From assembly GCA_021819825.1 (NCBI GenBank), contig JAKAEZ010000004.1, positions 34,756 to 98,755 of the forward strand: a DNA stretch of 64,000 nucleotides, given 5' to 3'. Source of the DNA: Planctomycetota bacterium. GTDB taxonomy: Bacteria; Planctomycetota; Phycisphaerae; WQYP01. A model generated the notes under the pieces. The model saw only the letters and a program-made list of their open reading frames with translations. It was not told the DNA's origin and did not search any database. A program made the translations under genes and the position numbers. Below are positions 14,064-51,239 of this stretch, piece after piece; the stretch's first letter is position 1; each line of letters begins with the position of its first letter.

Positions 14064-14360
14064 TTATTGTATTATTGCAACATAGTTGCCAAACAAATCA
14101 CGCAGGTGTTTCCGAGGAGGTGCGCAAAAGCGTGGGTGGAGCAGGATGGTGCGCGTGCCGGTCACGGAAAAGCTCAACAATTTCGCTAATACGAACATAC
14201 TAATTAAGAACATAATAATTAATTTTTTCCAAAAAAATTGAAATACTTCCTTTACAATTTAAAAAACTTCTCCGAAAGACATGTCATGTATGTATCGGGA
14301 CCCCGGAGGCTCGCAATACGCGAAACAGGTCGATCCCGTCTATTTTGAGGAGTCCACTTT

Positions 14361-14579
14361 ATGCAAATACTTAAGAAACCGGCAGAAATTATTGAACAGA
14401 CTTATCCTGAAATTATGACCATTACTCAGGTGGCCCAGTATCTCGGTTGTTCGGAACGTAATTGCCATACCCTTGTCAAAAATGGAACACTTCCAAGTTT
14501 TCTCTTAGGGAATCTGCGTCGGTTTCGCCTTGAATCTGTTCGTGAAACACTGGCCCGACTGGAGAAAAATGCCAATTAG
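14361..14579 (+). CDS. Excisionase-family / MerR-like helix-turn-helix DNA-binding protein
   Basis: 72 aa. MTITQVAQYLGCSERNCHTLVKNGTLPSFLLGNLRRFRLESV is the typical excisionase/AlpA-type HTH. It lies immediately upstream of the integrase. Confidence 0.75.
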   Translation: MQILKKPAEIIEQTYPEIMTITQVAQYLGCSERNCHTLVKNGTLPSFLLGNLRRFRLESVRETLARLEKNAN

Positions 14580-14673
14580 CAGGTCTAATCTTTGTGTCGA
14601 TACATATCTAGCTCGCTAGATTCAAAGTGAACACTATAATGAGGTCGCTAATTAATACTATTATCGAGGAGAA

Positions 14674-15966: not shown

Positions 15967-15998
15967 ATCCGGCGCGTCTGCCAATTCCGCCACCCGAG
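15917..15998 (-). tRNA. tRNA-Leu (anticodon UAG), type II with long variable arm
   Basis: Reverse complement is GCTCGGGTGGCGGAATTGGCAGACGCGCCGGATTTAGGTTCCGGTTCCGAAAGGAGTGCAGGTTCGATTCCTGTCCCGAGCA. It folds with a 7-bp acceptor stem, a GGCGGAATTGG D-arm typical of Leu, anticodon stem CCGGA/TCCGG with loop TTTAGGT, variable arm TCC-GAAA-GGA, and T-loop TTCGATT. No CCA is encoded. Confidence 0.93.
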
Positions 15999-16044
15999 CG
16001 GGCAATGCACCATTTTAACATAGCCCCTGCGTCTTGGCACACGC

Positions 16045-16119
16045 GTTGACAACACGTGTTGACGGACCCCATGTATTGACAGACCCCACGCCGACAGTTA
16101 TACCTAACATATACCTAAC
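16045..16119 (+). promoter_or_regulatory. imuB upstream control region: palindrome, direct repeats and a sigma70-like promoter
   Basis: Perfect 12-bp palindrome CAACACGTGTTG (16050-16061). Direct repeat TTGAC[G/A]GACCCCA at 16059-16071 and 16076-16088. TTGACA (16076-16081), 17 nt, then TATACC (16099-16104). Tandem TATACCTAAC at 16099-16108 and 16110-16119. AGAGGG ribosome-binding site before the ATG at 16134. Confidence 0.4.
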
Positions 16120-16133
16120 TTTTAGAGGGTTAT

Positions 16134-17711: not shown

Positions 17712-17761
17712 AAATATGGTAAATCCAAGATTTGAATTTGAACTTTGAGATATAAATCGGT

Positions 17762-20700: not shown

Positions 20701-21034
20701 AGCAGCCGGCGAATTAGCGGATGCCATTGGCCACCCGGATGCCGCCAAAGTGGCGGTAGCCGGATTGGTACTGGTGCGGCAACGCCCCGGCACAGCATCC
20801 GGAATTTTATTTATCACCATGGAAGATGAAACCGGCACGGTAAATCTGATTGTCAAACCGCGAATCTACCAGCGGTACCGCATGGACCTGCGCCACAGCA
20901 CCGCCCTGGTGGTATGGGGACAGGTGCAACGCCAGGAAGGCGTCACCCACATCATCGTTCGCCGAGCGGTTAACCTGCAAACCATAACCCGCAGTACCGA
21001 AGCATTACAAAGTGTCTCGCGGGATTTTCATTAA
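17762..21034 (+). CDS. dnaE2: Error-prone DNA polymerase III alpha-subunit paralog DnaE2 (ImuC)
   Basis: 1090 aa. PHP-domain N-terminus YVELQTTSNFTFLHGASHPEEYIQRAAELEYDAIALTDH. Pol III alpha core motifs (ILKIDILALGML, FQVESRAQM) and an OB fold at the C-terminus. Confidence 0.92.
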   Translation: MPEQPEKRYKPAVTPRRPAAAGAMQYVELQTTSNFTFLHGASHPEEYIQRAAELEYDAIALTDHATMAGMVRAHTAAKQAGIRLIVGTHIRIDLPASASNSRQHCNVLLYPTDVASYGRLCRLITLGRRQACKGSYRITLENVLAHQAGLLVIALPPVHADAAFTDTLMTLKSVVDDDRLSLAMIHRYGCNDAQTLQQLAQLSRRTELAPVAVNDVLYHAPRRQRLQDVLACIRLGRTIHELGLQRIAHAERHLKSPEEMCRLFRDYPQALKRALEIAARAKAFSMDQLTYHYPHEICPPGFTPMDYLIQLTLQRAAQRHPEGVPESLQRRLEHEFSLIRELNYPAYFLTVYDIVRFAVSQNILCQGRGAAANSAVCYCLGITAVDPQRIDLLMERFISKERNEPPDIDIDFEHERREEVIQYIYKRFGRNRAAITAEIISYRRKSALRDVGKAMGLSLDCVDKLAKSGDWWEKGMIREHQLRELGLNPSDTTIAQVLELAGELIGFPRHLSQHVGGFVITEQPLCELVPIENAAMPDRSIIQWDKDDLDAMGILKIDILALGMLTCIRKAIDLVNRWNRRINPAPAAITFATIPPEATEVYDMLCRADSIGVFQVESRAQMAMLPRLKPRCYYDLVIEVALVRPGPIQGGMVHPYLRRRSGREPVDYPSAAVRGVLERTLGVPLFQEQVMRLAMAAAGFTPGQADALRRSMAAWKRKGNQLAAFGGQLIAGMLANGYTQEFAQRCFEQIKGFGEYGFPESHAASFALLVYVSAWLKCFYPTAFAAGLLNSQPMGFYQPAQILRDAQNHRVQVLPVDVNYSQWDCTLEWVSADRTAGRLPDVDADAERPAVRLGLRMVRSLHQSGADLICDAVARHGRMESISTLRRLSRCSLADLKSLARADAFGSMGLDRQEALWSLRRLRSQALPLLDELDPPEPRPGLPIIAESDKVIGDYQSVGLSLKAHPMSFVRLILNQRGIIAAGELADAIGHPDAAKVAVAGLVLVRQRPGTASGILFITMEDETGTVNLIVKPRIYQRYRMDLRHSTALVVWGQVQRQEGVTHIIVRRAVNLQTITRSTEALQSVSRDFH

Positions 21035-37434: not shown

Positions 37435-37611
37435 GCCAAATGCCAAATACCAAATACCCTCGCTCGTCGTTCGTTGTGACATCGACGTTTCTGATCAGTG
37501 ATCGTTGACCAATGAAGTTCACCCCAGTTTCCCCGTCCCGCTGTAACCCGTAACCACCGCCGGAGGGCGGTTGTGCCGGGATGGCGAAATTGTTCATCAA
37601 GTGCAACCACA
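37435..37611 (-). repeat. Heptamer-array composite element, copy A
   Basis: Head GTTCATCAAGTGCAACCAC (37593-37611), hairpin CCGCCGGAGGGCGG, GTAACC units, TGATC units and CCAAAT[G/A] x3 (37437-37457). It is homologous to copies B-D. Confidence 0.7.
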
Positions 37612-37816
37612 ACCCGCCTGAAAAAGGGCCAATGCTGTTTTGGTGATTGAATCATACCTCGCCAACCGCATGGGGCCAAGCATATCCACACGGATCCACA
37701 CGAATCCGCAAAAACCGGCACCCGTGCGGTGAATCACTGGCGGCCATTTCCGCGCTGGCCCGCCGAACCGATGGATACCACCTTCTCGCGTTCCATAATC
37801 ATCGCAGTAACCTGAC

Positions 37817-38884
37817 TCATTTTAACCCCGCCCGGCGCTTTTTAACCGGGATCCAGATGTCCTTTGCTTTATCATAGCGGTAAGTTTCGGACCCGTATTG
37901 GAAAGTTCGCGGCCCGAGCCCACCACCGATCTGCCAACCATTATTTACCAAAACCGACGGTGCCTTATGCGAAGCACGGTGGCCTTGCGCCAGCACGACG
38001 ACGTATGGAGCCATTCCGCGGCCCTGGGGTCCGGAAAATTCGGACAATCCAACGTCGTTTTGCCCGGAGATAACATCCACGGAAAGGGAAGTCAGTCTGC
38101 TGTGCATTCGCATCGCCCTGAGTTCGATATCGCACGGCTTGCCGCCGAATCCATTATGGATGACCCACGAACGGGACTCTCCCGCTAGAGCTCCACGGAG
38201 TGCCGAACCGAGGCCCGCTTGTAAAGAAGCCAGCGTTGCTTTTTTGCTCCACATTTGAGCCTTCTGGCGGTCGCGAGGAACACCTATGCCAAATCGGTAA
38301 ACATTGGCTAACTCAGACATTGCCGTACCATCTCCTGCGGCGGCTGCCATCCTGTACCACTTTAACGCTTTTGCAGGGTCTTTGGGCACCCCGTCACCCA
38401 ATGAGTAGAGCTGGCCTATTGCGTACATCGCCGGAGCAAAATCCAGGGCTGCAGCGCTCTGGTACCACTTCATCGCCAACGCGTAATTCTGCTTCCGGCC
38501 TCTTCCCCGCTGGTAGCAGATGCCGAGATCATACCTTGCGTTGAGATCCCCGGCGGTGGCAGCCCGTTCGTACCAGTCCGCCGCTTTGCGGTAGTCGGGG
38601 GGAACGCCCCAGCCCTTGTTATACAAATACCCAACGGCGGCCATGGCGTTGGAGTTTCCGCCTGTGGCGGCCTTCAACCAGAGGAGCCTCGCCTTGGGGT
38701 AATCACCCGCCACGAAGGCAGCGTAACCCTGTAGAAAATCTTTCTCGGCAACGGGGCCGCCCTGCGCCCCCATCGCTGGCGGGGATCCCAAGAAGTGGCC
38801 GACAGTTGCAAACGTACTAATCAGAATGAAAAAGACAACTGGGGTGAGAAAGCGGAGGTTGTTCGTTTTGTTGATTTCCCGCAT
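37817..38884 (-). CDS. Secreted Sel1-repeat protein with an unassigned ~150-aa C-terminal domain
   Basis: Signal peptide, then at least four Sel1-type repeats (..A.WY.KAA..G...A...LG..Y..G.GV..D...A..W..). Confidence 0.8.
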   Translation of the reverse strand: MREINKTNNLRFLTPVVFFILISTFATVGHFLGSPPAMGAQGGPVAEKDFLQGYAAFVAGDYPKARLLWLKAATGGNSNAMAAVGYLYNKGWGVPPDYRKAADWYERAATAGDLNARYDLGICYQRGRGRKQNYALAMKWYQSAAALDFAPAMYAIGQLYSLGDGVPKDPAKALKWYRMAAAAGDGTAMSELANVYRFGIGVPRDRQKAQMWSKKATLASLQAGLGSALRGALAGESRSWVIHNGFGGKPCDIELRAMRMHSRLTSLSVDVISGQNDVGLSEFSGPQGRGMAPYVVVLAQGHRASHKAPSVLVNNGWQIGGGLGPRTFQYGSETYRYDKAKDIWIPVKKRRAGLK

Positions 38885-38977
38885 AGGTGTGCTCCTGCCT
38901 GCGGATGTAACATAGTTCTGTTTTCGGACCGTTTAGACCCGTCCCGATATCCGTTGAGACACGATTGTTATCTGAAT

Positions 38978-39200
38978 AGCCGCAGCAAATAATTTCATTG
39001 GCACCGGCGCTACGCTCAAATACCAGGGAGCAGTGATCAATGAACAAATCATTGGAAGCTCGGCGTTTCTGGTCAGTGATCCGTGATCGTTGATCAATGA
39101 AGTTCACCCCAGATTCCCCGCTCCGCTGTAATCCGTAACCTGTCCCCTGTAACCCCGGCCTCGCGCCGTTATGGTGAGATGGTTCGTTCAGTGCAACCAT
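38978..39200 (-). repeat. Heptamer-array composite element, copy B, fused to an Rhs-core remnant
   Basis: Head GTTCGTTCAGTGCAACCAT (39182-39200), GTAACC/TGTCCCC units and TGATC units. At 38978-39010 there is AGCCGCAGCAAATAATTTCATTGGCACC, which encodes GANEIICCGY on the minus strand; this is the motif that precedes the Rhs C-terminal core in the full modules. Confidence 0.7.
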
Positions 39201-39306
39201 AACCCAATCCATAACACGAAACCGACTGTTTCAGCTCTCCACTTTCTACCGGCTGCTCTCTCAGCGTAGCCGCCGCAATCTTTAAAACCGCCGCCATTTC
39301 CATTAG

Positions 39307-40260
39307 CTAACCGCCGTTGCGAAGGTCGGTGTAGTCGCGGACCAGATCCTTGCGGCGAGCCATTTCGCTGGCGTAGCGGTTTCCGAGCCATGCGCGATTT
39401 TCCTGCGCCCATTCTGTTAGCCTTGTTTTTCCGGCGGCCGGGGCATCCACAACGAGCCGGCTTTCCATCAGGCCACGAATTTCGTCGCGCGTGATAATGA
39501 CATCGTGAACGAGCTTTCCGGCCACCGCCGCAAACAGGTATCCAACTTCCGGATTCACGGATATGACCGGACGCGGGCACCCGATGATAGTGCCTATCGC
39601 CTTTACGAGTTCGCGATAGGTAAATGTTTCGGGGCCGATGGCTTGGACAATACGGTTGGTGCTATCGCCCGCGCAGCGTACCGCCAACTCCGCCAGATCA
39701 TCCACGTAAATCGGTTGCAACTTGTATTGGCCATCGCCAAACACCCCAAACACGGGCAGGTGCCGTAACACCCATGCGATATTATTAATCAAAATATCCT
39801 CCCGCCCGAAGATCACAGCAGGCCGCAGGATCGTGAAATCCACCCCGGAATCCGTCAGTGCCTGTTCAACTTGCGCCTTGCCGCGAAAATACTCTAAATC
39901 CGAGTTGATATCCGGATTGGTAATACTCACATGCACAATCCGCCGTACACCGGCGGCCTTGGCGGCGACAAACAGGTTCCGACTGTTTTCGATAGCCTCC
40001 GCAAAGCAGAATGTCCGGCTATTGAAACGCACCCAATAGGTGTTGTAAAGTACATCCACACCCGTCAATGCTTCGGCCAGCTTTTTGGGATCATGCCAGT
40101 TAAACGCTTGCACCTCCACGGACCGGCCAAAAGGATTATGCCGTTGCGGCGAGTTGGTCAAGGTTCGTACCCGCGATCCCTGTGCCAGCAACCGCTTGGT
40201 GATATATTTGCCCGAGTAGCCAAAAGCCCCGGTAACCGCATGCAATAACTTATCGCTCAT
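39307..40260 (-). CDS. NAD(P)H-binding SDR-family (NmrA/epimerase-like) oxidoreductase
   Basis: Rossmann motif VTGAFGYSGKYITKRL at the N-terminus. 317 aa. Confidence 0.75.
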   Translation of the reverse strand: MSDKLLHAVTGAFGYSGKYITKRLLAQGSRVRTLTNSPQRHNPFGRSVEVQAFNWHDPKKLAEALTGVDVLYNTYWVRFNSRTFCFAEAIENSRNLFVAAKAAGVRRIVHVSITNPDINSDLEYFRGKAQVEQALTDSGVDFTILRPAVIFGREDILINNIAWVLRHLPVFGVFGDGQYKLQPIYVDDLAELAVRCAGDSTNRIVQAIGPETFTYRELVKAIGTIIGCPRPVISVNPEVGYLFAAVAGKLVHDVIITRDEIRGLMESRLVVDAPAAGKTRLTEWAQENRAWLGNRYASEMARRKDLVRDYTDLRNGG

Positions 40261-40317: not shown

Positions 40318-40632
40318 TTAAAAGAAAAAGAGAAACAACGCCAAGCTGAATACTAACACCGGAAGGGCCATGAAAAACCACCAGATATGGATAGGCCACG
40401 GCACACGCTCCCGCCTGCGCCCGAGTATGAAGAGGCAGATAGTACCGAGGTACCACGTCACTAAGTATGTCAAGATGGCCAGAACTTCCGGACCGCTGGC
40501 GTATCCCCCGCGCCGGCCTTGATGCCATTGAATTATCCCCGTGACGAGGGCGGTGGCAAAAGAGATTGTATTTAATAATGCCAGTATATATGTAAGGTTG
40601 CGCATCGTATTATACCTAGAAAAGCCAGCCAC
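40318..40632 (-). CDS. Small multi-pass membrane protein, candidate immunity protein for the 40712-42883 Rhs tip
   Basis: 104 aa with three hydrophobic segments. It is the first ORF downstream of the Rhs module on the same strand. Confidence 0.5.
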   Translation of the reverse strand: MAGFSRYNTMRNLTYILALLNTISFATALVTGIIQWHQGRRGGYASGPEVLAILTYLVTWYLGTICLFILGRRRERVPWPIHIWWFFMALPVLVFSLALFLFFF

Positions 40633-40711
40633 CTACGCAGAGTGGATCGAAACCACCTCGACATCAGGGTTTCATCCACAAGGTTGTCAGGAGCACAGTG
40701 TTGTGTTCATG

Positions 40712-42883
40712 CTAATTAGCAATCGGAGGCCACGGCCAAGGAGGCGGGCCACCAGCTCCATTCGAACACTGGCCATAGCACTTCACCAAGGTTCCGTAGG
40801 GAACGTTTTGCAGGCCATATTTCTCCGTAGCCCATAGGTAGCAAAGAGTGTGAGCCATTTCAGCGCTGGCCCCAAAGCCGTAAAGCTCCGCCAAGCATCC
40901 ACGTACATATTGCGACCATGGACTGTTTCCGGCGCATTTGCAGAAGCACCGCGCGTTGGCTCCCATGTATGTATAGCTGCACGGGTACTTGTTGCACACC
41001 GGTGAGTCGGCAGGGGCCGGCGGAAAATTCGGCGGGGCTGCTGGCCCCCTCGCCGGCTCCGGCGGTATGGGCCACAGCCGCCAACCGCCCGGCGGCGGGA
41101 TCCAGGGATTAGGTGGAGCGGTACCGTTGTTACCCGTTTCGCCCGCCAGCCCCATTGGGTCCACCGCCGCATCCGCCAGTCCCCCCACATACTCATACAA
41201 ATTCACGCCACCGGCGTAGCCGATCGGATCGCGTTGAATCCACCGGCCGAGCACTGGCGAATATGTTCGATTGCGGACATAGTAAAGCTCACTTTCCGGA
41301 TCGAATCGGTAGCCGCAATAGATGACTTCATTGGCACCGTAACTGCTTTGCACATCGTCATCCGTGAACCAGATGCCATCCGCACCCGGCGCGGTGAAGA
41401 TCAGCGTGTTACCGTACGCGTCGGTGTCGTATGTTTCCACGATGCCGCCGCTGGAATTGGTTAATGCCACCGCGCGATACAGCAAGTCCTGCAGCAAATA
41501 GTAACTTCCAGGTTCCAGGTTCTGACTTCCCAATGCTGCGAACGTCGTGAGTTGGATACACTCATCAATATAGGTACCCCAGACATATTGCCGGATCGGC
41601 GTATCGGTTGAGCCGCTGCCACCGAACGGGTTGCGTTCTTCCACCACCTGCCAGCCGCTCCAGATATAATCCGTGGTGCCGTTGGGAACACTGCCCGTCA
41701 GGCCGCCATTGAAGATTGTTTTCCGCACCCGCCGATTCATGGCATCATATAAATATGTCGTAATGATGAGGCCATCGGATACACGGTTGATCTGAATCAA
41801 TCTGTTGAGCGCGTCATAGGCGTAAATCAGGGTGCCGTCATTTTTCAGATTGCCATTGGAGGCACCGGTTGCGCCATCGTATTGGAATGTGACGGCCGGG
41901 CTGGTTCCCACTGTCCGCTGAATGATCTCGTTGAGCTTGTTGTGATTCCTCTGATCCGTTATCGCACTACCGGCCCCTTCGGGCGTATACACACTGCTGG
42001 TCCAATTGCCCAAGGCGTCAAGGTTATAATTCCGGCTTTGATCGGTATTGGGCAACGCAATGGGCGTAGTAACACTGCCGCCGCCGGTGGCTAATATGCC
42101 GCGCTGATAATCCAATAGCCGGTTCATGGAATCATACGAATCATAAAGGCTGCTGCGTTCTTCGGCGTGCAGCGGGCGTTCAAAGAGTTTGTTGGAACTC
42201 TCATCATAAGCACTGGTAAAGCCCACAGTGACATTGGTGCCATTGAAGTACCGCTTGCCGATCATGCGGCCAGAGCCGTCATAACCAAGCTGATCGGTGC
42301 TGATGCTGCCCCAGGCGGGTGTGGGCAGGCCGGATTGAATCGCCGATCTGGTCTGGGCATCGTTCATATTGGAGCACACCAAACCATTACCCAGCGTTAC
42401 CGTAGCTATTCGGTTGGCTCCAAAGTACTGCCAACTGGCGATCACAGCACTCGTAGCTGCTTCAATAATTTGTTGGCGACGAAAGAGTTTGTCGAAGCTG
42501 TTGTTAATCTGCCTACTGTTGGGATACGTAAACTGGCTTACCGGCAATGAGGTAAAGCCGTCATTGGTGACATAGCGTGTGTTGCCGCCATAAACTTGCT
42601 CTTCTTCCACAGTCCTTCCGATGGAATCATAGACCAAGGTTACATCGGCATTGTTTGTGCCGACGGTATCACGGGCAAATGTAGTCTGGGCCAGGCCGTT
42701 ATATTGGAAGCTTTGCGCAGTCGTGCCGCCAATTCCAGATGCGGGAGTAATCGTGATGTTCGTCTTCCGGCCCATACAATCCCAAGTGTCAGAGAATACC
42801 GAACCGTTTTCGTCCGTGTATGTTACCACATCGCCGGCTGAATCGTACACAAATTCAACATAGCCACCGCATCTCCCTTTCAC
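40712..42883 (-). CDS. Rhs/YD-repeat protein module (5'-truncated core + C-terminal variable tip)
   Basis: YD repeats throughout. Rhs core end ..YVWGTYIDECIQL..IYCGYRFDPESELYYVRNRTYSPVLGRWIQRDPIGYAGGVNLYEYVGG..DPMGLAGE, followed by a ~140-aa Pro/Cys-rich tip. The only start is a GTG that overlaps the stop of the upstream ORF. There is no N-terminal delivery domain. Confidence 0.88.
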   Translation of the reverse strand: MKGRCGGYVEFVYDSAGDVVTYTDENGSVFSDTWDCMGRKTNITITPASGIGGTTAQSFQYNGLAQTTFARDTVGTNNADVTLVYDSIGRTVEEEQVYGGNTRYVTNDGFTSLPVSQFTYPNSRQINNSFDKLFRRQQIIEAATSAVIASWQYFGANRIATVTLGNGLVCSNMNDAQTRSAIQSGLPTPAWGSISTDQLGYDGSGRMIGKRYFNGTNVTVGFTSAYDESSNKLFERPLHAEERSSLYDSYDSMNRLLDYQRGILATGGGSVTTPIALPNTDQSRNYNLDALGNWTSSVYTPEGAGSAITDQRNHNKLNEIIQRTVGTSPAVTFQYDGATGASNGNLKNDGTLIYAYDALNRLIQINRVSDGLIITTYLYDAMNRRVRKTIFNGGLTGSVPNGTTDYIWSGWQVVEERNPFGGSGSTDTPIRQYVWGTYIDECIQLTTFAALGSQNLEPGSYYLLQDLLYRAVALTNSSGGIVETYDTDAYGNTLIFTAPGADGIWFTDDDVQSSYGANEVIYCGYRFDPESELYYVRNRTYSPVLGRWIQRDPIGYAGGVNLYEYVGGLADAAVDPMGLAGETGNNGTAPPNPWIPPPGGWRLWPIPPEPARGPAAPPNFPPAPADSPVCNKYPCSYTYMGANARCFCKCAGNSPWSQYVRGCLAELYGFGASAEMAHTLCYLWATEKYGLQNVPYGTLVKCYGQCSNGAGGPPPWPWPPIAN

Positions 42884-43458
42884 TCCCCACTTGAATTCCG
42901 CCTCCCGCGAGACGCCGAGGGCAGGGTGCCGAGCGCTGTTCCAATTCCAAAAAGAAAGCCCCGCATCGCATCAGCTAGGCGACCAACCAGCCACTTCTCG
43001 GCCTCCCCTACACCCTCGACCCGCGCCGTATGCACTTCCGCCTGCCCACCCACCCGCGTATGGATGTCCATACGTCCTTCTACTAGCCTGCCAAGCCAAA
43101 CCGTTGTCCCCGAACTACCATTCACCGCGTCGGCGTACAGGTCGGCACCCAGTCGGCGCACCAAGAAGATGTGGGTTGACTCATCGGGAAGATCACAGCG
43201 AAGGAGGAGCCAGTTCTTCGTAGCCGCAGCTTCCGGAATCCTCCTCAACGCGAGCGCCGCCAATTCGAGCACCTGATCGCAACGGTCCTTCACAGCAGAC
43301 CACCGGTCAGTGGTCTCACTTCTGCTCGCCGCAGCCACCGTTCTTAGTTCCGCATAATCCTCGGCGGATGCATTCACCAACCTCGCCACCGCATCCGCGG
43401 TGGCGAGGGCGACGGTACGCTCGAAGAGCGCCAAAAGATCACCTTCCGCGTGACTCAT
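42880..43458 (-). CDS. Hypothetical soluble protein (Ala/Leu-rich); possible orphan immunity gene
   Basis: 192-aa ORF with no motif recognised. Its TGA overlaps the GTG of the Rhs module (GTGA at 42880-42883). Confidence 0.45.
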   Translation of the reverse strand: MSHAEGDLLALFERTVALATADAVARLVNASAEDYAELRTVAAASRSETTDRWSAVKDRCDQVLELAALALRRIPEAAATKNWLLLRCDLPDESTHIFLVRRLGADLYADAVNGSSGTTVWLGRLVEGRMDIHTRVGGQAEVHTARVEGVGEAEKWLVGRLADAMRGFLFGIGTALGTLPSASRGRRNSSGE

Positions 43459-43614
43459 TTCGTGCGTACCCTTTCCAGATCTCTAAACGCCTCCCTGCCA
43501 TCCATCACGGTGGCAAACATAGCAGCGCAGCTAACGCAAGTGGCTGTCGCAGAACAATACGGAGCCGGAGCTGTACGGTGTTGCCCCGGCCGCACGCCCC
43601 TAAAATTTCCGGAA

Positions 43615-43971
43615 TCAGGGGGGGACCGCATTTTCATCGCCCCCGTGCTCACCAGTCTCGCCGCGGCGATTGCCCGGACCACCTGCCGCGCCCGTCTGCG
43701 ATCCCTCGCCCCTTGCCTCGGTGAAAGCCTGGCCTACTGCTTCGAAAATAACCCCTCGAAACCATGCTCTCCACCACCTGAATATTTTCCAGATTAGAAA
43801 CGCGCATGCGGCCGTGACAAGGAACGGCAGAACGTCAACCAGCCAAAAGGCGTATGGGGTTGGATGCCGGATAGTAACGGAGCTTAGCTGAGGCGGCAAT
43901 ACCGATACCGCTCCGACCGGCACCGCCGCGATGCTAGACAGCTGGGAAATCGCATGTAATATGGGGCCCAT
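43615..43971 (-). CDS. Small membrane protein, candidate immunity protein for the orphan tip at 43983-44646
   Basis: 118 aa with two or three hydrophobic segments. It starts 11 nt after the orphan tip stop. Confidence 0.5.
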   Translation of the reverse strand: MGPILHAISQLSSIAAVPVGAVSVLPPQLSSVTIRHPTPYAFWLVDVLPFLVTAACAFLIWKIFRWWRAWFRGVIFEAVGQAFTEARGEGSQTGAAGGPGNRRGETGEHGGDENAVPP

Positions 43972-43982
43972 TGGTCATCCTC

Positions 43983-44840
43983 CTAGTTGCAGCAATTGCA
44001 CCGTACCTGGAAAGTGTCTCCGTGGAAAATGGACCCCACCACCTTGGTGAATCCAAATTTCCAAACGCCTATTGTATCCAATATTTTGACCTCGTAGATC
44101 AGTGTATACGTGATTATCTGGGTGCCATCCGCGCAGGGGCTGGCGGTCACAATCGGGGTGCAGGGAATGACGACGGCGGAAAAGTGGCCGCCGGGAACAG
44201 TCGTGAATCCCGTCCAATAGTGTGCCACTATCTGGGCGCTGGGGCTTGGGCACACTTTATTCTCACGGACCACGACGTGAAAGGTTGCCCAGAAGCCTGC
44301 GTGGAACGTGTCTGTGGCGGTGACAATCGCAAGGCCCGACGCATCCGCCCCCGCCACCGCTCGGCCACCGACATACTCATACAAATTAATTCCACCGGCG
44401 TAGCCGATCGGATCGCGTTGCAGCACCCGAGTCGCCACTCCTGTGGCCTTTCGGGATTTCGGCTCCTGCCTCAACACCGTGCCGGGAATCGAGCTGTAGG
44501 TGCGATTGCGGACGTAATACAGTTCCGCTTCCGGATCGTGTTGATTAAGCGGGGTTGCCAAGCAGCGACATTGTGGCGAAGCGTCATCCAATCCGCGAAA
44601 TCCCGGTCTGTCGGGATATCCGCAGATGATGATTTCGTTGGCACTGGCGCTTCGCTCAATGACCAATGAGTAATGATCAATGAATAGAACGGGGAAGCCG
44701 TATTTTCGATCCGTGATCAGTCTTCCTTGATCAGTGGAAATGTCTCCTAACTCCCAACTCCTGCATGCTCGTCCAACCCCTGTCCCCTGTAACCCCGGCC
44801 TCGCGGCGGGATCGTGAAATTTTGCGTTCAGTGCGACCAT
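43983..44840 (-). CDS. Orphan Rhs C-terminal fragment (core end + ~125-aa tip); the 5' part of the ORF is the heptamer element
   Basis: ..SANEIIICGY[26-aa insert]DPEAELYYVRNRTYS[insert]LQRDPIGYAGGINLYEYVGGRAVAGADASGL, then a unique tip. Rhs homology starts near 44646. Upstream of that point the ORF is read through repeat copy C. Confidence 0.6.
   Translation of the reverse strand: MVALNAKFHDPAARPGLQGTGVGRACRSWELGDISTDQGRLITDRKYGFPVLFIDHYSLVIERSASANEIIICGYPDRPGFRGLDDASPQCRCLATPLNQHDPEAELYYVRNRTYSSIPGTVLRQEPKSRKATGVATRVLQRDPIGYAGGINLYEYVGGRAVAGADASGLAIVTATDTFHAGFWATFHVVVRENKVCPSPSAQIVAHYWTGFTTVPGGHFSAVVIPCTPIVTASPCADGTQIITYTLIYEVKILDTIGVWKFGFTKVVGSIFHGDTFQVRCNCCN
44647..44840 (-). repeat. Heptamer-array composite element, copy C
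   Basis: Head TTGCGTTCAGTGCGACCAT (44822-44840), TGTCCCC/GTAACCC units, CTCCTAA/CTCCCAA/CTCCTGC (44744-44764), TGATC units and CAATGA units. 38 nt (GCGCTTCGCTCAATGACCAATGAGTAATGATCAATGAA) are identical to copy D. Confidence 0.7.
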
Positions 44841-45063
44841 CAGAGCAACTCCGCAATCGACAAATGCTAGCCACAGTTTACCCCGCCGGACATGTTCTCA
44901 CAACGCTCCGAAATCGGGAGGGTGGCTACACCCTTAAATTGCACCGAAACCCGAAAACCGGTCGCGTCCCCGTTTCACTTTCTGGCCCGGGTAGTCGGGA
45001 TATGGAAGGTGATTGCTTGACCGCCGGTTGCGTGGCCCGTTAAGGGCCTCGCTTCCCCGTGCA

Positions 45064-46491
45064 TCAATATTGGGTGGCATTGTATATATGGCCGCACCGC
45101 CGCGATAGGCGTTGAAAGCGCGACGCTTTAAATTGTCTTTCAAAGTCACCATGCCAGTTCCCGAAACTTGAGTCGGCCAAAAGGAATTTCACTATTCTAC
45201 CGCCGCGGCGCGGCCGCAGGCAATCGCCAAAGTTCCGCACCCAGCGGGCCGCCGGTGATCGCGGCCCGGCCATCGGGCGATACCGCGATCGATGTGCAGC
45301 CGCCGATGATGTCGGGGGATCTCCAGACCATTCGCCCGTTGCTGGTATCCACCGCACAAAAAAACCGATACCGCCTGCAATGTTACTTGTAAGCGCAGCA
45401 ATTACACATTTAGGATTTCCGCTGTTAGCGAGTTGAACGATGTACCATTGATCGGCGTACTCAAAGTGAATGGAGATGTGGCGAACGAGCGCCCCGTTTT
45501 GGTCACTGAACGCAGAGATACCGGGCACCACGCCAATCGTCCCAGTCGCGGCGAGAAAATCGTTCCCGCCAGGCGTCTTGAGCAGGGATCCGGTGAAAGG
45601 CATGTGATTTGTTGCACCTATCTGCTTGCGGGGCCGACGTCGGTGGCCGCTGAATATGAATATTTGGGCACCGCCCTCCACAGCTACCCGGTGGGCGCTG
45701 ATGTAGGCCAGGCCGGCGGGTACCCGGAAGCGCCGTGAAAAGTAGCGTGCGATTGGGGCGGGCGTTGCCGAGTCCGTACGCCATATTACGCACACCGGAC
45801 CGGGAGTGGTGAGGGAATCATAACCCACCGCCAGTTCTTTTCCAGAGGTTGAAAAACTTAGCGCAGTGGCGGGATTATTCCAATCCGTGCGCAATTGGAT
45901 GGGGTTGCTTCTGGCATTCCCGCTCCACAGGGCCACAAAATTTTTGTTCCCCAGCCTCGTTGATGTAGCGACAAGGTGAGTTTCTGGCGAGGTTGCACCG
46001 CAAACACCGAATACGGGATTTGACCAAGACTGTGGAGTTGGCAACTGGCTGATAGAAACCGTGGGTGTCCGTAGATTGGCAGCGTCAGGCCAAAATGGCT
46101 CCCGTGGATGGGACTGTAAAATGCTTAAAAATTTTTGCGACTGCCATGCGTCGTCGAGTCGGAATAGTTTTGATCCTTGGGGACGGGAGGCGAGCACGGG
46201 GCCGGAACTCAACGCAAATACCGCCAATGACGGCGATAAAAATCCGATTGCGCCCGGGCTGAACCAATCGTTTTTATCTCCCTTTGATATCCTTAAATGG
46301 GGCGACGCAGTTCGCGCTGCCATCGCTGCGAGATCGCCTCGATTCCACCACGAGTAAAGAAGAAGTGGTACCGGCGGCTTCGGTGGTGCATGAGTTGAGT
46401 TCCCGTTGCGGTGACAGCCAGCGATGGTTAATAGCACCACGGAAACAGGCAACGCGTTTCGCCACGCTGTGAGCGATTGTTTTATTCTCAT
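45064..46491 (-). CDS. Lipoprotein (possible beta-propeller), candidate immunity protein for the 46488-48905 Rhs tip
   Basis: MRIKQSLTAWRNALPVSVVLLTIAGC contains a lipobox. The ATG at 46491 overlaps the Rhs TGA (ATGA at 46488-46491); the track start is 46506. Confidence 0.55.
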   Translation of the reverse strand: MRIKQSLTAWRNALPVSVVLLTIAGCHRNGNSTHAPPKPPVPLLLYSWWNRGDLAAMAARTASPHLRISKGDKNDWFSPGAIGFLSPSLAVFALSSGPVLASRPQGSKLFRLDDAWQSQKFLSILQSHPREPFWPDAANLRTPTVSISQLPTPQSWSNPVFGVCGATSPETHLVATSTRLGNKNFVALWSGNARSNPIQLRTDWNNPATALSFSTSGKELAVGYDSLTTPGPVCVIWRTDSATPAPIARYFSRRFRVPAGLAYISAHRVAVEGGAQIFIFSGHRRRPRKQIGATNHMPFTGSLLKTPGGNDFLAATGTIGVVPGISAFSDQNGALVRHISIHFEYADQWYIVQLANSGNPKCVIAALTSNIAGGIGFFVRWIPATGEWSGDPPTSSAAAHRSRYRPMAGPRSPAARWVRNFGDCLRPRRGGRIVKFLLADSSFGNWHGDFERQFKASRFQRLSRRCGHIYNATQY

Positions 46492-48905
46492 TTGGCACCA
46501 CAGCACTTTTGGAACCCGTAATTAATTCGGGCATTGAGGCCTAAAAGAAGTCGCAACAACCACCCGCCCTCGTCACCGGTTACAAACAGGCAGCCGGCAG
46601 TGCAACGGATGGCGCATTGGGAAAGCCCGAGTTGCTCGGCCATGACACTCTGGTAGCAGCATTCTGGGCTGCAAAGCCCCTTTTTACGGCATGTACCATC
46701 CGCCACTTGCCACGCGGGTGTGTTCCCAAGGCTCCAATGGTGGGAGAGGCATCGGTTGGCACATCCAACAAAACAGGCCTGTGTAGGGATTCCGAACGGG
46801 TGGACCACTGGAACTGGTGGCAAGGGAAGCCACCCCGGCGGTGGAGAAAGCCTTTGCACCTCCGTGCAGAGAAAGCGGGAGACATCCGCAGCACAACACG
46901 ACCATGGCTTATTGGGGCAGCTACAGACCGCGGATTGGGATTGGCACTTTCGGGCGTAACGGGAGGTCGCCCGCTCACAGGTCTGTTGGTAGGGGACTAA
47001 CCATGGTGGCGTTCGCAATTCTAGCGGGCCCGCAACAGCGCCATTGTTACCGCTCGTATCCACCTCCGCCACCGCTCGTCCCCCCACATATTCATACACA
47101 TTCACGCCGCCCGCATAGCCGATTGGATCGCGCTGCAGCCACCGGCCAACCGAAATGCCTTCGGCGTCCGTCAGGAACATGCGGTTACGAACGTGGTACA
47201 GCCGCGTTTCCGGATCGTATCGGTAACCGCAGAAGATCATGTCGTTGGCACCGTAGGTGAAGCCTGACCCGACATCGTCATCGGTGAACCACACGCCGTC
47301 GGGGCCGGGGCCGGTATAGATGATCGTCTGGCCGTAAGCATCAGTATCATAAGCCTCGACGATATTTCCGCTCGAATTGGTCAACGCCACCGCGCGATAC
47401 AGCAAATCCTGTAACAGGTAATAGGTTCCCGGTGCAAGATTTCCGCCGCCCAATGTTGCAAGCGTCGTGAGTTGGATGCACTCGTCAATGTTGAGGCCTC
47501 CAAACCTCCATATCTGCGGCCGAAATCCCGTCGGGGCCGAGGCCCCCGTGCGCGCCGCTGCGCCGGGATACGTGCCCCAGATATATTGCCGAATCGGCGT
47601 GTCAGTGGAACCTGTTCCACCAAACGGATTGCGTTCCTCCATTACCTGATTGCCCAAGTAAATACAGTCGGTTGTGCCGTTGGCAATTCCCCCGCCGAAT
47701 CCGCCGTTACTTATCGTCTTGCGGATTCGTCGGTTGAACGCGTCAAAGACGTAGCTGCCCAGAACCGTTGCACCGCCCGCCATATTCACTTGGATCTGCC
47801 GATTCATCGCATCGAATTGATAAGTACGGAAGCTGTCATCAGCCAGGTTGCCGTTAGAGGCTCCCGGCGAGCCGTCGTAGGTGAATGGCCTGCCACCGAA
47901 ATTGGTGATCTGGTTAAGCCGATTGTGGTTGCGCTGCTGGACCGAGGGAGTGTCGCCCATAGGCGTGTAGGTCAGCGATCGCCAATTTCCCATGCCGTCG
48001 AGGTTCCATGCCTCCTGTGCGTTGACACTCGGCAACGTGGTTGGCGTAGCGACACTTCCTCCGCCGGCATTCTGATAACCTCCGGTGCTGTTCAACGTCC
48101 CTCTCTTATATTGCAACAGCCTGTTGATGGAATCATAACCGGGTATTGGTGAGGCGATGTTACCGTTGTTGTCCACTGGCTGATACAGGAAACTTCTGCT
48201 TTCCGCGTGCAACGCCCGTTCATAGAATTTGTTATCCGCCGGATCAAAGGCGGTGGTGTTGCCCACTACGGACGTGGTGTTGTTGTAGGCAAAAGTGCTG
48301 GAATTGATGCCGCCGAAAAGGTACCGTTTGGCAATCATGCGGCCAGAGCCGTCATAACCCAATCGGTCACTGGAGGGTGTGCCCCACGCCGGATTGGGTA
48401 CCGTGCCGAACTGCACCGCACTGTGGGTTCTGGCATTGTTGAGCATGGTTTGAATGATGCCATTGCCAAGGGCAACTTCCGCAGTTCTCTGTGGCCCGAA
48501 GAATTGCCAACTGGCGATCACGGCACTGGTGGCCGCTTCGATAATCTGTTGGCGGCGGTACAGGGCGTCATAGCTACTGTTGATCTGCCGCGCGTTGGGG
48601 AAGGTAAACTGGCTAACTGGAAGTGATGTAAATGCGTCATTGGTGACATACCGGCTGTTGCCGCCGTAGGCTTGAGCTTCTTCCACGGTTCGCTGGATGG
48701 AATCGTAGACCAGTGTGACATCAGCATTGTTGCCGCTGGCGGTATCGCGGGCAAAGGTGGTCTGCGCCAGGCCGTTGTATTGGAAGCTTTGCGCGGTGGT
48801 GCCCCCAATTCCTGATGCGGGAGCAATCGCTACATCTGTCTTCCGGCCCATACAATCCCAAGTGTTAGAGAATACCGAACCGTTTTCGTCCGTGTATGTT
48901 ACCAC
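46488..48905 (-). CDS. Rhs/YD-repeat protein module (5'-truncated core + Cys-rich C-terminal tip)
   Basis: Paralog of 40712-42883, with the same YD core and core end ..RWLQRDPIGYAGGVNVYEYVGGRAVAEVDTSG, followed by a ~190-aa tip with about 19 Cys. YD-like codons continue upstream of the GTG as far as a TGA at 48973-48975, which is the stop of the preceding membrane-protein ORF. Confidence 0.88.
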   Translation of the reverse strand: MVTYTDENGSVFSNTWDCMGRKTDVAIAPASGIGGTTAQSFQYNGLAQTTFARDTASGNNADVTLVYDSIQRTVEEAQAYGGNSRYVTNDAFTSLPVSQFTFPNARQINSSYDALYRRQQIIEAATSAVIASWQFFGPQRTAEVALGNGIIQTMLNNARTHSAVQFGTVPNPAWGTPSSDRLGYDGSGRMIAKRYLFGGINSSTFAYNNTTSVVGNTTAFDPADNKFYERALHAESRSFLYQPVDNNGNIASPIPGYDSINRLLQYKRGTLNSTGGYQNAGGGSVATPTTLPSVNAQEAWNLDGMGNWRSLTYTPMGDTPSVQQRNHNRLNQITNFGGRPFTYDGSPGASNGNLADDSFRTYQFDAMNRQIQVNMAGGATVLGSYVFDAFNRRIRKTISNGGFGGGIANGTTDCIYLGNQVMEERNPFGGTGSTDTPIRQYIWGTYPGAAARTGASAPTGFRPQIWRFGGLNIDECIQLTTLATLGGGNLAPGTYYLLQDLLYRAVALTNSSGNIVEAYDTDAYGQTIIYTGPGPDGVWFTDDDVGSGFTYGANDMIFCGYRYDPETRLYHVRNRMFLTDAEGISVGRWLQRDPIGYAGGVNVYEYVGGRAVAEVDTSGNNGAVAGPLELRTPPWLVPYQQTCERATSRYARKCQSQSAVCSCPNKPWSCCAADVSRFLCTEVQRLSPPPGWLPLPPVPVVHPFGIPTQACFVGCANRCLSHHWSLGNTPAWQVADGTCRKKGLCSPECCYQSVMAEQLGLSQCAIRCTAGCLFVTGDEGGWLLRLLLGLNARINYGFQKCCGAK

Positions 48906-48974
48906 ATCACTGGCTAAATCATAAAAAAATTCCCTGCTTGATCCATCCTGAAATTGGGTAACCGCAGTAATGGC

Positions 48975-49313
48975 TCACTCTTCCCGCTTATTGCCGCCCC
49001 CGTGGCGACGGTGCCAAGTCCGTATCACTTGCCGCGTTCTGATGAGCATATCCGGATTCCGCGCCAAAAGGATCCAAATCGCGGCCACGGTGATGTTTAA
49101 GGACTGGGCGAGGTCTGAGTATTGGTGGCTATATCGGAGCTCGGTCACGAAGATAACCAAGACTACCAAGGTCGCCTCGGCAAGGCGAATTTCCCGGAGC
49201 TTCGCTGTGTCCCTTCGCTTGATTGCTGGCACACGGTAAAATAGCAGTTCGTTCGTCGGTGTCTGAAGGATCACGAACGCGAGCATGCCAACAAGCCACG
49301 GCTGAATCTGCAT
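48975..49313 (-). CDS. Small membrane protein, candidate immunity protein for the orphan tip at 49404-50027
   Basis: 112 aa with hydrophobic segments (LVGMLAFVILQ, LVVLVIFV, ITVAAIWILLA). It is the first ORF downstream of the orphan tip. Confidence 0.45.
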   Translation of the reverse strand: MQIQPWLVGMLAFVILQTPTNELLFYRVPAIKRRDTAKLREIRLAEATLVVLVIFVTELRYSHQYSDLAQSLNITVAAIWILLARNPDMLIRTRQVIRTWHRRHGGGNKREE

Positions 49314-49403
49314 TGTAAAACCTCCTTATCTAAGGGCGTTCCGCCAAGGGCGTGCCAGCCCGACGGTCGCAGGTTTCCGCCGGCACAGAACGAGGTCGGG
49401 CCG

Positions 49404-50027
49404 CTACTTAGTCCCGCCCCCTGAAAGGCTCCCGCATGGGGGATAGGGCGAGGCACTCGCCGGGTCCGTATTGCCGAATGTCGTGATTTGGCACCTGCAG
49501 TGGCCTGCCAGCCTCACTATCCCCAAGAACGCGACCGGCCTGCCTTGGCCTCGCCTGGGTCCGGGAAGCACTCCAGTGCCGGAAACGCAAATTGTGCCCG
49601 CCGGGGGATTGCAGGGTTTACAGGGGCAGGGGGGAGTGCAAATTTCCGAGATTCCGTAGAGCAGCGAAGCAAGACAACCGGCCAGCACGAGCAGGTCGCC
49701 GCTGCGGAGGGCGCTTGCTACACATATCGCGTAAAGATCCAGCCACTGGGACACGCATTTCTGGTATGCCGCCTCGCTAGCAAGGCCTGTCGGGTCCAGG
49801 GCAGTCACCGCCCGTCCTCCCACATACTCATACAAATTCACGCCACCGGCGTAGCCGATCGGAGCGCGTTGCAGCACCCGAGTCGCGACTCCTGTGGCCT
49901 GTTGAAATTTCGGCTCCTGCCTCAACACCGTGCCGGGGATCGAGTTGTAGGATTGCACGGATACGCCGCTGTGGCGGCCTTTGCCGTTCAGTTTGGTTGC
50001 CGAAGTTGTTTCGCTCAACGCGACCAA
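49404..50027 (-). CDS. Orphan Rhs C-terminal fragment (very short core remnant + Cys-rich ~125-aa tip)
   Basis: ..YNSIPGTVLRQEPKFQQATGVATRVLQRAPIGYAGGVNLYEYVGGRAVTALDPTGL, then a tip with about 11 Cys. It starts with TTG inside a copy of the 19-nt head motif (50008-50027) and translates as MVALSE. Confidence 0.55.
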   Translation of the reverse strand: MVALSETTSATKLNGKGRHSGVSVQSYNSIPGTVLRQEPKFQQATGVATRVLQRAPIGYAGGVNLYEYVGGRAVTALDPTGLASEAAYQKCVSQWLDLYAICVASALRSGDLLVLAGCLASLLYGISEICTPPCPCKPCNPPAGTICVSGTGVLPGPRRGQGRPVAFLGIVRLAGHCRCQITTFGNTDPASASPYPPCGSLSGGGTK

Positions 50028-50154
50028 GAAACAATTCCTTTCCTTTATCCGAAGAGCACGCGTTAACTATACCGCATGGCACAACATCAGCAAACTCGCC
50101 GGTAGACTACAACATTGCGTAACTGGCCAAGACGCCGATTCCCCCACCGTTAAA

Positions 50155-50586
50155 TTAGCTACTCGCGTCTCCGCTGCACTTCCTCGGGAGGACGACCGCC
50201 AATCCGAAGGCGAACGCCGCCACGACGAAAAGGAAATCCAGGAATGTAGCGACTGCGAACCCCGCTGGTGCGGTCCGGCCAAACACGATCCCTACCGTCT
50301 CCCTACCGGAAAAATACAATGCCAATGCCAATGCGATCAACGTTCGAATAAGGTACGCACGTCGCCCGCGGGCGGCCGTCCCCGCGACGGCGATCGCGTG
50401 GGGCCGTAGGAGTCGCCTTCCGGCAACGAGAATCTGCCATACCGCCAGCGGATTTATCAGCACACTCGACGCGAACCAGAATCGTTCGCCCAGGCGGAAT
50501 GGTGCCAGTGCAACCAGCGTGCCGGAATAGACCAATACACACGCCAGAACTCCGCCGCAAAGCCTGTTCCAGAGACGCAATCGCAC
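50155..50586 (-). CDS. Multi-pass membrane protein, orphan immunity candidate
   Basis: 143 aa with four hydrophobic segments. It lies downstream of the degenerate Rhs remnant attached to repeat copy D. Confidence 0.45.
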   Translation of the reverse strand: MRLRLWNRLCGGVLACVLVYSGTLVALAPFRLGERFWFASSVLINPLAVWQILVAGRRLLRPHAIAVAGTAARGRRAYLIRTLIALALALYFSGRETVGIVFGRTAPAGFAVATFLDFLFVVAAFAFGLAVVLPRKCSGDASS

Positions 50587-50761
50587 TCGAGTTACTCCTT
50601 ATCGCAAGCTATACTCCGCTCGGCCCCTGGCGGTACATTGCGATGGCCTGAAAACCCAATAAAGGGCCGATTTTGTGGAAGAATCTACCAGTGCAAACGT
50701 ATCACGGCTGGCCGAGTCGCGTATAATAAAAAACTTACTTCGACATATCCCCCGCCGGGAT

Positions 50762-50987
50762 AGCCGCAGAAGATGGTTTCATTGGCACAAGCGCTTCGCT
50801 CAATGACCAATGAGTAATGATCAATGAACAAATCATTGGATGTTCGGCGTTTCTGATCAGTGATCCGTGATCGTTGATCAATGGTGTTCACCCCCGATTC
50901 CCCCTGTAACCCGTAACCTGTAACCTGTGACCTCCGCCCGCGGGCGGTTGTGCTGGAATGGCGAAATTGTTCGTTCAACGCAACCAT
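50762..50987 (-). repeat. Heptamer-array composite element, copy D, fused to a degenerate Rhs-core remnant
   Basis: Head GTTCGTTCAACGCAACCAT (50969-50987) and palindrome CCGCCCGCGGGCGG (50934-50947). Arrays are GTAACCC/GTAACCT/GTAACCT/GTGACCT (50906-50933), TGATCAG/TGATCCG/TGATCGT/TGATCAA (50854-50883) and CAATGAC/CAATGAG/TAATGAT/CAATGAA (50801-50828). TAGCCGCAGAAGATGGTTTCATTGGCAC encodes ANETIFCGY on the minus strand, and no Rhs tip follows it. Confidence 0.75.
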
Positions 50988-51239
50988 GGGCTGCCCGCCA
51001 ATACACAATGGATTCGACGCCCACATTCTAACCCCCCGCCCCCGTCTATGCCAAATACCAACTGCCAAATGTTCTCCCTCGGGACCTGTGACAAATTCTG
51101 CCAGGTCTTTCGGGGCCAAAAGCCTTAACGTTTTAGCGCTGTTGCGCATTACCCCTCTTACTGCCACCCTATAGCGTTCCCGATGAATAGCTCAGACCTG
51201 CTGAACAATGTTCTTTGACAAATGAATAACATGCCGCCA

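Follow-up and report, generated by a model that had tools for sequence, protein, structure and literature searches.

Enterobacterial rhs loci carry orphan rhs-CT/rhsI modules, which are tandem, same-strand, 5′-truncated cores with different toxin tips, each followed by a small immunity open reading frame (ORF) (Jackson et al. 2009; Poole et al. 2011, PMC3150448; Koskiniemi et al. 2014). These orphans are described as generally lacking initiation signals. A similar array occupies the minus strand between 51.05 and 40.3 kb, with remnants reaching approximately 37.4 kb, in a 64,000-nt stretch of the planctomycete (Phycisphaerae-type) contig JAKAEZ010000004.1 (the window, to which all unprefixed coordinates refer). 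As in enterobacteria, each fragment has core homology at its 5′ end, and related planctomycetes keep such orphans downstream of a full-length gene. Unlike the enterobacterial loci, the array is headless, belongs to a planctomycete and has no type VI secretion system (T6SS), PAAR or VgrG context. The planctomycete full-length proteins also differ in their size of approximately 2100 residues and their low-complexity N-terminus, and the orphans often retain cores of approximately 600 residues. The favoured explanation, to which a probability of roughly 0.7 is assigned, is that short homology arms mediated repeated C-terminal displacement and so built up a headless orphan array. Tip swapping among Rhs genes commonly yields loci of this kind. 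The present one departs from known loci in its phylum, the lack of a T6SS-type context, its headless state, an ultra-conserved arm and, above all, a non-Rhs promoter-leader cassette borne by its short orphans.

Steele et al. (2017, PMC5727410) observed that many truncated Rhs genes of Snodgrassella alvi are transcribed rather than silenced. Like the modules considered here, these genes combine an intact core end and tip with the loss of the delivery domain. The S. alvi loci, however, are headed by a PAAR-containing full-length gene and are tied to a T6SS, and no separate, conserved leader cassette is described for them. In Salmonella Typhimurium, Starsta et al. (2020, PMC7043789) reported internal promoters in main and orphan rhs genes and a role resembling that of type II toxin–antitoxin systems. 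There, a conserved promoter before many tips and an internal translation start yield toxin and immunity protein without delivery, and among known systems this is the closest functional parallel to the short modules of the window that bear the cassette. The Salmonella P2 promoter and its CTG start nevertheless lie inside Rhs core coding sequence, whereas the cassette described here is a putative non-Rhs promoter, untranslated region (UTR) and ATG leader fused at many truncation points. For the long modules, a functional analogy is offered by Neisseria pilS/pilE, in which promoterless, 5′-truncated tandem copies lie away from the expression locus and share short, conserved recombination arms. 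The protein family and biology of pilS/pilE are unrelated, and each module of the window, unlike a pilS copy, brings its own immunity gene.

The array comprises two long modules, two short modules and three remnants, all on the same strand, and behind each Rhs unit lies an ORF of membrane, lipoprotein or Sel1 type. The tips of the four modules are mutually unrelated. An earlier note, made from the letters of the sequence, had described the interval 40318–50586 as a set of 5′-truncated orphan-type modules with no full-length rhs gene; its ORF order, strand and nearly all of its coordinates are borne out, and its description holds for the 64-kb window. No full-length rhs gene was found anywhere in the window, and none heads the array. 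Rhs sequence ceases upstream of 51.05 kb and gives way to a PEP-CTERM-like gene and ilvC, and tblastn of the whole 64-kb window returned only four Rhs fragments. Neither the N-terminal plug (DUF6531) nor a delivery or export region occurs in any module or anywhere else in the window, and the Rhs ORFs of the window are thus fragments of Rhs genes, not complete Rhs toxins. As the earlier note had stated, the modules showed no N-terminal domain of any kind, PAAR and signal peptide included.

Residues of the Rhs core are numbered here according to the full-length relative L008 (2162 residues; ‘ref’). Long orphan module 1 (40712–42883) contains core residues ref 1366–1968 (42853–41150) and a Cys/Pro-rich tip of 145 residues. 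Long orphan module 2 (46488–48974) contains ref 1358–1968 (48953–47049) and a Cys-rich tip of 187 residues (47048–46488). Both modules align over approximately 600 residues to L008 with E=0, and module 1 also matches Pfam RHS_repeat (PF05593; E=7.9e-7), in line with their first identification as Rhs; module 2 gave no Pfam match. The similarity of module 1 to longer Rhs proteins starts approximately eight codons past its GTG. The open frames of the two modules are uninterrupted over 723 and 828 codons. The core-end region of the modules corresponds to the core end of the solved Rhs, Tse5 and YenC2 structures, and the autoproteolysis motif that directly precedes the variable tip in Rhs proteins (…RDPIGY.GG.NLY.Y… PxxxxDPxGL) keeps its intact form in two of them, as VDPMGL in module 1 and as LDPTGL in the short module at 49404. 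Approximately 1350 N-terminal residues, including the DUF6531 plug, are missing from the long modules. Because this loss takes in shell, plug and any export part, fragments of this kind could presumably, judging by established Rhs/Tc shells, neither close a cocoon nor be exported, and would therefore not be delivered toxins.

Inspection of the 5′ ends of the long modules revealed that the Rhs frame abuts the stop codon of an unrelated ORF. For module 1 the only start is a GTG sharing bases with the stop codon at the end of the upstream 192-residue ORF (42880–43458, minus strand), which forms the GTGA overlap at 42880–42883 that had been pointed out before. No homologue of the 192-residue ORF was found in any fetched locus. 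Module 2 has no Shine–Dalgarno sequence, and its first in-frame start is an internal GTG at 48905, again as anticipated. Its Rhs frame is open immediately past the TGA of the preceding membrane ORF; this codon, first placed at 48973–48975, lies at 48975–48977 and is in frame with module 2.

Both long modules begin at a common, very highly conserved stretch, as the earlier note had proposed. This 64-nt arm (GATGTGGTAACATACACGGACGAAAACGGTTCGGTATTCTCTRACACTTGGGATTGTATGGGCC) lies at 42769–42832 in module 1, where it forms an ultra-conserved 5′ end, and at 48845–48908 in module 2, where it codes for DVVTYTDENGSVFSNTWDCMG; the general product is DVVTYTDENGSVFS(N/D)TWDCMG. The two copies are identical at 63 of 64 positions at an offset of 6076 nt. 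A single difference over approximately 60 nt had been reported for 42775–42835 against 48843–48903; in substance this is correct, although those two intervals are approximately 8 nt out of register and give 48 mismatches. Identity peaks at the arm in six out of six pairwise comparisons, with flanks that are approximately 70–90% identical. The arm is also identical (64/64) in the full-length rhs gene of locus L017 and nearly so (68/70) in the long orphan downstream of that gene, and the shared 5′ end of the modules therefore appears to behave as expected of a swap-in arm. An arm common to full-length genes and orphans across genomes is a concrete candidate recombination site.

The junction of module 2 is also found in another genome. 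Window positions 49476–48855, which run from the end of the preceding tip through the membrane ORF and its TGA to a point ~120 nt inside module 2, are 91.3% identical to L002, a metagenome-assembled genome (MAG) from another assembly, and the identity drops to 74–76% exactly past ...NTWD in the arm. The membrane ORF itself (112 residues; 48975–49313) shares 89% protein identity with the ORF at the same position in L002. A single TGA separates this ORF from module 2 in the same frame, and this arrangement is kept in L002 (approximately 903–905). Read-through of the TGA into module 2 was considered and rejected, as the in-frame state is kept, probably by chance, because the junction was inherited free of indels, and there is no sign of recoding. 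At the point where the identity drops, L002 also has an insertion of approximately 290 nt (L002:1026–1312), which lies exactly past the arm (...NTWD) of a long module and provides GAGGTG-N5-ATG and a 64-residue leader (MARSDNTADGRL...) in frame with the Rhs core. A leader of this kind also forms the N-termini of proteins P0006 and P0021, and the insertion is a second, unrelated route by which a truncated module has gained a start. The idea that module starts coincide with the upstream edges of conserved core blocks was assessed with a codon-alignment conservation profile of eight full-length genes; the fit was weak at ref ~1360 and 1906 and absent at 1631, and the idea was not relied on.

Truncated modules of this kind are widespread among relatives. 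A profile of the first 330 residues of the module, run over species-representative genomes, yielded 63 loci, with a best identity of 88%. In 12 of the 63, including that of the cultured Planctomycetales bacterium ZRK34, the homologous frame is uninterrupted for 2046–2213 codons. These full-length relatives share a layout of a low-complexity Pro/His/Gly/Ser N-terminus, a plug, a YD-repeat shell of approximately 1900 residues, a DPxGL core end and a variable tip. DUF6531 is detected weakly at residues 73–147 (E=0.0015, below the Pfam cut-off), RHS repeats occur throughout (PF05593; E=1e-16 to 2e-32), and the core end, at approximately residues 1905–1968, matches solved Rhs, Tse5 and TcC structures. 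The N-termini of the full-length proteins of L008 (5930–6100), L009, L012, L019, L031 and L040 contain poly-His, PNPNPN, poly-Gly or (PSPSVN)n tracts before the plug, and have no recognisable signal peptide or PAAR. A protein search with ref 900–1365 as query returned only fragments and no full-length proteins, which its word prefilter evidently misses.

The arrangement of orphans relative to full-length genes is illustrated by L017, in which a full-length gene (964–6567) is followed by an orphan that begins at ref 1526 and then by P0002, a long orphan that starts at ref 1335 and shares 83% identity with module 1. Loci L016, L019 and L012 likewise combine a full-length gene with orphans. Headless arrays are also found in L030, L007, L010 and L011, with no full-length gene within ≤10 kb upstream. 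Across all fetched loci, truncated modules begin anywhere from ref 406 to ref 1937, with clusters of starts at 1166/7, 1311–1366, 1582–1587, 1631–1634 and 1906/7. Long orphan modules are normal in this lineage: many orphan cores begin at ref 1160–1390, and the modules of the window are not the unusually long ones that the earlier note took them for. The enterobacterial picture of short tips only does not carry over. The tip-swapping picture is thus extended to Rhs proteins of Planctomycetota, which are approximately 2100 residues long, have no T6SS-type delivery domains and carry Cys-rich tips. Many short contigs of a MAG labelled ‘uncultured Chromatiales’ (CAYTGL01 contigs; L022–L029 and L050) also carry the planctomycete-type Rhs family at approximately 60% identity, with all copies truncated near ref 1283–1319; they reflect either a contaminated bin or transfer of the family.

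A repeat of approximately 230 nt is present in four copies in the window (50.99–50.74, 44.84–44.60, 39.20–38.95 and 37.61–37.44 kb), and also in the Rhs loci of five other MAGs and in Joint Genome Institute (JGI) metagenome contigs. The first copy constitutes remnant e50 at the head of the array (50685–51054, minus strand). It has a promoter-like site, TTGGCA-18-TAGAAT (51054–51025), an ATG at 50987 (MVALNEQFRH...), a linker and an Rhs core-end fragment, ANETIFCGY (approximately 50790–50760), beyond which it is truncated and has no toxin tip. A degenerate remnant had been recognised at 50.8 kb; it proves to be a copy of the leader cassette of the 44-kb short module, with further copies at 39.2 and 37.6 kb. 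The 44-kb module (e44; 43983–44840, minus strand) had in turn been given the extent 43983–44646, but its ORF runs up to an ATG at 44840 (MVALNAKFHD...), which opens the conserved leader. The leader is followed by a linker, the core end (ref 1907–1968 at 44642–44334) and a tip of 117 residues. The second short module (49404–50027, minus strand) starts at a TTG and opens with a degenerate leader (LVALSE...), behind which come the terminal portion of the Rhs core (ref 1937–2017; RDP/APIGYAGGVNLYEYVGG...LDPTGL) and a Cys-rich tip of 129 residues. Two further remnants lie outside 40318–50586 on the same strand: e39 (38885–39245) has an ATG at 39200 (MVALNEPSHH...), a linker and a core-end fragment (ANEIICCGYSDNNRVSTDIGTGLNGPKTELCYIRRQ) and has lost its tip, and e37 (37440–37679) has a promoter-like TTGGCC-17-TATGAT (37679–37651) and a GTG at 37610 (VVALDEQFRH...), with no Rhs part left.

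The cassette opens with ATG GTT GCA CTG AAC GAA CAA TTT CAC CAC (MVALNEQFHH). In seven of 12 copies the ATG is preceded by TTGGCA/C, a spacer of 17–18 nt, TAGAAT, TATGAT or TATAAT, and a conserved UTR of approximately 40 nt that ends in CAGGCGG; the site upstream of e50 is the best match in the region (10/12). Variation in leader codons 2–10 is distributed 12/7/19 by codon position, a third-position bias that includes the synonymous pair CTG/TTG. In the six copies that reach Rhs sequence, the distance from ATG to core is 196, 196, 196, 199, 205 or 283 nt, and all of these values are equal modulo 3. Both patterns, like the in-frame fusions listed below, speak for translation of the leader. The constrained part of the cassette appears to comprise the promoter, the UTR and the first ~10 codons. 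Variants of the leader in database proteins and loci include MVALDEHFQHNG, MVAQNEKLDHNG, MVALNESIFHH, MVSANEK and MVVADEII. In database proteins and metagenome contigs, the leader or one of its variants is joined in frame to Rhs cores at no fewer than eight positions (module 1 residues ~103, 105, 122, 238, 266 and 288, and ~ref 1780, 1907 and 1937), and small non-Rhs ORFs may also follow it directly. Approximately ten of the 52 truncated modules in the fetched loci bear the leader, all of which begin at ref ≥1458; none of the long modules among the 52 has it. A search with a longer leader profile retrieved mostly short, dead ORFs.

The conservation of the cassette suggests that several of the fragments are still switched on through it, and the cassette is possibly a new expression device; no description of it was found in a full-text literature search, which was a limited check. 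The view of the whole locus as a silent archive may thus be retained only for the long modules, as the short modules and remnants carry a conserved putative promoter, ribosome-binding site and ATG leader. If the cassette is active, the orphan modules of this lineage would be systematically expressed rather than silent, and its activity bears on why orphan toxin/immunity arrays persist, be it as an immunity bank, an addiction module or a reservoir. A structured RNA was considered for the ~230-nt repeat and rejected: Rfam identified only tRNA elsewhere in the window, and in RNAalifold with six copies the covariation term was positive, and hence penalising, and compensatory pairs were few. In the cassette linker (approximately 50800–50890, and likewise in the 39.1-kb and 44.7-kb copies), approximately five GATC/TGATCA motifs cluster in 80 nt, accompanied by tandem GGTTACA-like heptamers and by a GC palindrome (CCGCCCGCGGGCGG). 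The linker may be under constraint at the DNA level, for example through protein binding or methylation sites.

It is proposed that the moving unit of the favoured explanation consists of a 3′ core, a new tip, its immunity gene and a short core-homology arm. Two homologous crossovers, a left-hand one within the core and a right-hand one within the arm, would install this unit and displace the resident 3′ part downstream, where it would keep the arm as its 5′ end. Such a process would account for an Rhs frame that abuts the stop codon of an unrelated ORF, for the shared start point and near-identical arm, and for the occurrence of the same junction in other genomes. The long modules would then be a start-less recombination reservoir for a full-length rhs gene elsewhere, if one exists, as suggested by analogy with related MAGs, in which such a gene is present in several copies. 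For the short modules and remnants, intracellular transcription and translation are probable; they would act as toxin–immunity (addiction-like) pairs, and the cassette would also drive the immunity genes downstream. The immunity genes, which have good Shine–Dalgarno sequences, are probably expressed as an immunity bank.

Several observations weigh against this explanation. The crossovers are deduced from patterns of identity and have not been observed, and the points at which modules start are only weakly tied to conserved blocks of the core. The window holds no full-length rhs gene, and the reservoir role rests on the analogy with related MAGs. The promoter is a consensus match only, and the 12 promoter-like sites of the region are not above the 9.7 ± 3.3 expected by chance; the e44 and e39 copies have poorer −10 boxes, and the leader–core linker shows no codon-position bias (42/43/44). 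Other features look like decay: three units are mere remnants, and in two of the four modules the core-end autoproteolysis motif has degenerated, to VDTSGN in module 2 and to ADASGL in the 43983 module. Variants similar to VDTSGN and ADASGL also occur in database homologues.

These signs of decay lead to the view that a full-length rhs gene at the head of the array was deleted, that modules and cassettes are decaying pseudogenes that no longer serve any function, and that the conservation reflects recent origin or past function. The tipless remnants e50, e39 and e37 and the two degenerate DPxGL motifs are as expected of such a graveyard of genes, as are the many database copies of the leader in short, dead ORFs of 42–160 residues and the modules with internal deletions or frameshifts in L030, L059, L063, L004 and L002. 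N-truncated Rhs ORFs of 350–799 residues are, moreover, common in other bacteria, where they are usually placed among pseudogenes (bioRxiv 10.1101/2025.05.08.652813). This view is nevertheless considered quite unlikely, given that the 723- and 828-codon ORFs are unbroken with a core dN/dS (ratio of non-synonymous to synonymous substitution rates) of 0.10–0.17, that the immunity ORFs retain canonical Shine–Dalgarno sequences, that the arm is 98–100% identical between genomes although its flanks are only approximately 75–85% identical, and that leader codons show third-position bias and frame-preserving indels. A more ambitious reading than the favoured one, which is speculative and held to be rather unlikely, would make cassette and arm a dedicated, horizontally propagated system of cassette exchange and expression that re-equips every displaced module with a promoter, a start codon and an N-terminal decapeptide. 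The decapeptide could tag proteins for export, shell docking or controlled turnover; orphans would be working, leader-tagged mini-Rhs toxins, and headless arrays would be pilS-like donor loci.

The long modules have also been considered as autonomous half-shells similar to TcC, translated by GTGA coupling in module 1 and by read-through or non-canonical initiation in module 2, and pairing in trans with an N-terminal shell protein. In the TcB/TcC cocoon, a YD shell of approximately 1900 residues is split so that the C-terminal ~650 residues and tip form a separate, exchangeable subunit, and the long modules are similar to it in size: their retained core, approximately 600 residues before DPxGL, is near the length of TcC, in which the YenC2 core end spans residues 614–690 of 690. 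Starts of long modules cluster at ref 1255–1390 in several planctomycete families, the GTGA overlap and an in-frame TGA conserved in L002 are compatible with such translation, and in both L002 and P0021 a module of this type has gained an ATG leader by an in-frame insertion. Unlike in TcB/TcC, however, the homologue is a single unbroken ORF of approximately 2100 residues in 15 fetched loci; no gene for an N-terminal-only partner was seen, and there is no TcA, TcB or SpvB-type gene. The long modules lack a conserved start, leader or Shine–Dalgarno sequence, and their 5′ junction sequences vary between loci. In a comparison of a 21-sequence profile with the PDB, only the core end aligned to TcC, and the match of the boundary rests on length alone. 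Such half-shells are thus improbable. Still less credible, to the point of being highly improbable, is an assembly artefact in which one or more full-length genes were collapsed or chimerised through repeated Rhs sequence. The contig does stem from short-read metagenome assemblies (record names k141_...), and the region holds repeats of 64–300 nt at 74–98% identity. However, a separately assembled MAG (L002/L003) has the junction of immunity ORF, TGA and module 2 at 91% identity, which argues strongly against misassembly and contradicts the collapse that the earlier note had named as a possible refutation. In addition, the same protein and neighbourhood are found on two deposited contigs of 62.5 and 113 kb, every junction adjoins an intact ORF with its own Shine–Dalgarno sequence, and similar arrays occur on megabase-scale contigs and complete chromosomes.

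The dN/dS of the core, which was determined against the closest relatives, shows a long history as translated sequence, although it does not prove present-day translation. The small ORFs downstream of the Rhs units are presumed to be immunity genes on the basis of position, size, Shine–Dalgarno sequence and membrane, lipoprotein or Sel1 character; AAGGAG(G) or AGGAGG is found 7–8 nt before their starts. All lie on the minus strand. A multi-pass membrane ORF of 143 residues (50155–50586; AAGGAG 8 nt before a GTG; no Pfam match) is a presumed immunity gene whose toxin tip has been lost. The 112-residue membrane ORF downstream of the 49404 module has AAGGAGG 7 nt before its ATG. Module 2 overlaps at its end with a presumed immunity gene for a lipoprotein-like protein of 480 residues (45064–46506; lipobox LTIAGC), which has no significant Pfam match. 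The 43983 module is followed by a membrane ORF of 118 residues (43615–43971; AGGAGG 7 nt before the ATG), and module 1 by one of 104 residues (40318–40632), its presumed immunity gene. Directly after e39 lies a 355-residue Sel1-repeat protein (37817–38884; Sel1 E=6.8e-40); this is likely to be an immunity gene, as Rhs modules of L015 and L048 likewise have Sel1-like genes downstream.

Pfam searches at E≤1 found nothing for the four tips, the 192-residue ORF or the membrane ORFs. The tips contain nine (40712–41150), 19 (46488–47048), six (43983–44333) and 11 (49404–49790) Cys residues and are partly Pro-rich. The Cys-rich character of the tips, together with the membrane proteins or lipoproteins that are their partners, suggests that the toxins would act outside the cytoplasm. 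No convincing terminator was found between the units, which all point the same way.

An in-frame, GC-rich insertion of 78 nt (26 residues) lies in the core of module 2 (47490–47567, minus strand; GTY[PGAAARTGASAPTGFRPQIWRFGGLN]IDE). Two modules of L002 (L002:2500–2606 and 8828–8891) also contain this strongly self-pairing insertion (−35 kcal/mol), which resembles a small palindromic insertion element that the shell tolerates.

The nearest named relatives of module 1 are proteins of Phycisphaerae/Phycisphaerales MAGs. Its neighbours on the contig are housekeeping genes (ilvC, FtsH, FabF-like, leucyl aminopeptidase and ImuB-DnaE2), and no secretion apparatus, including any T6SS, PAAR or VgrG context, was found among the genes around the array in the 64-kb window. 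An NmrA/epimerase-like gene (39307–40260) lies in the middle of the extended array, which reaches approximately 37.4 kb. At a distance from the array, a cluster at 9825–21034 combines a large serine recombinase (9825–11783), a low-GC stretch (14–15 kb; GC 0.43), a tRNA (15918–15999) and the ImuB/DnaE2 mutagenesis pair (16134–21034), and may be an integrated element beside the tRNA.

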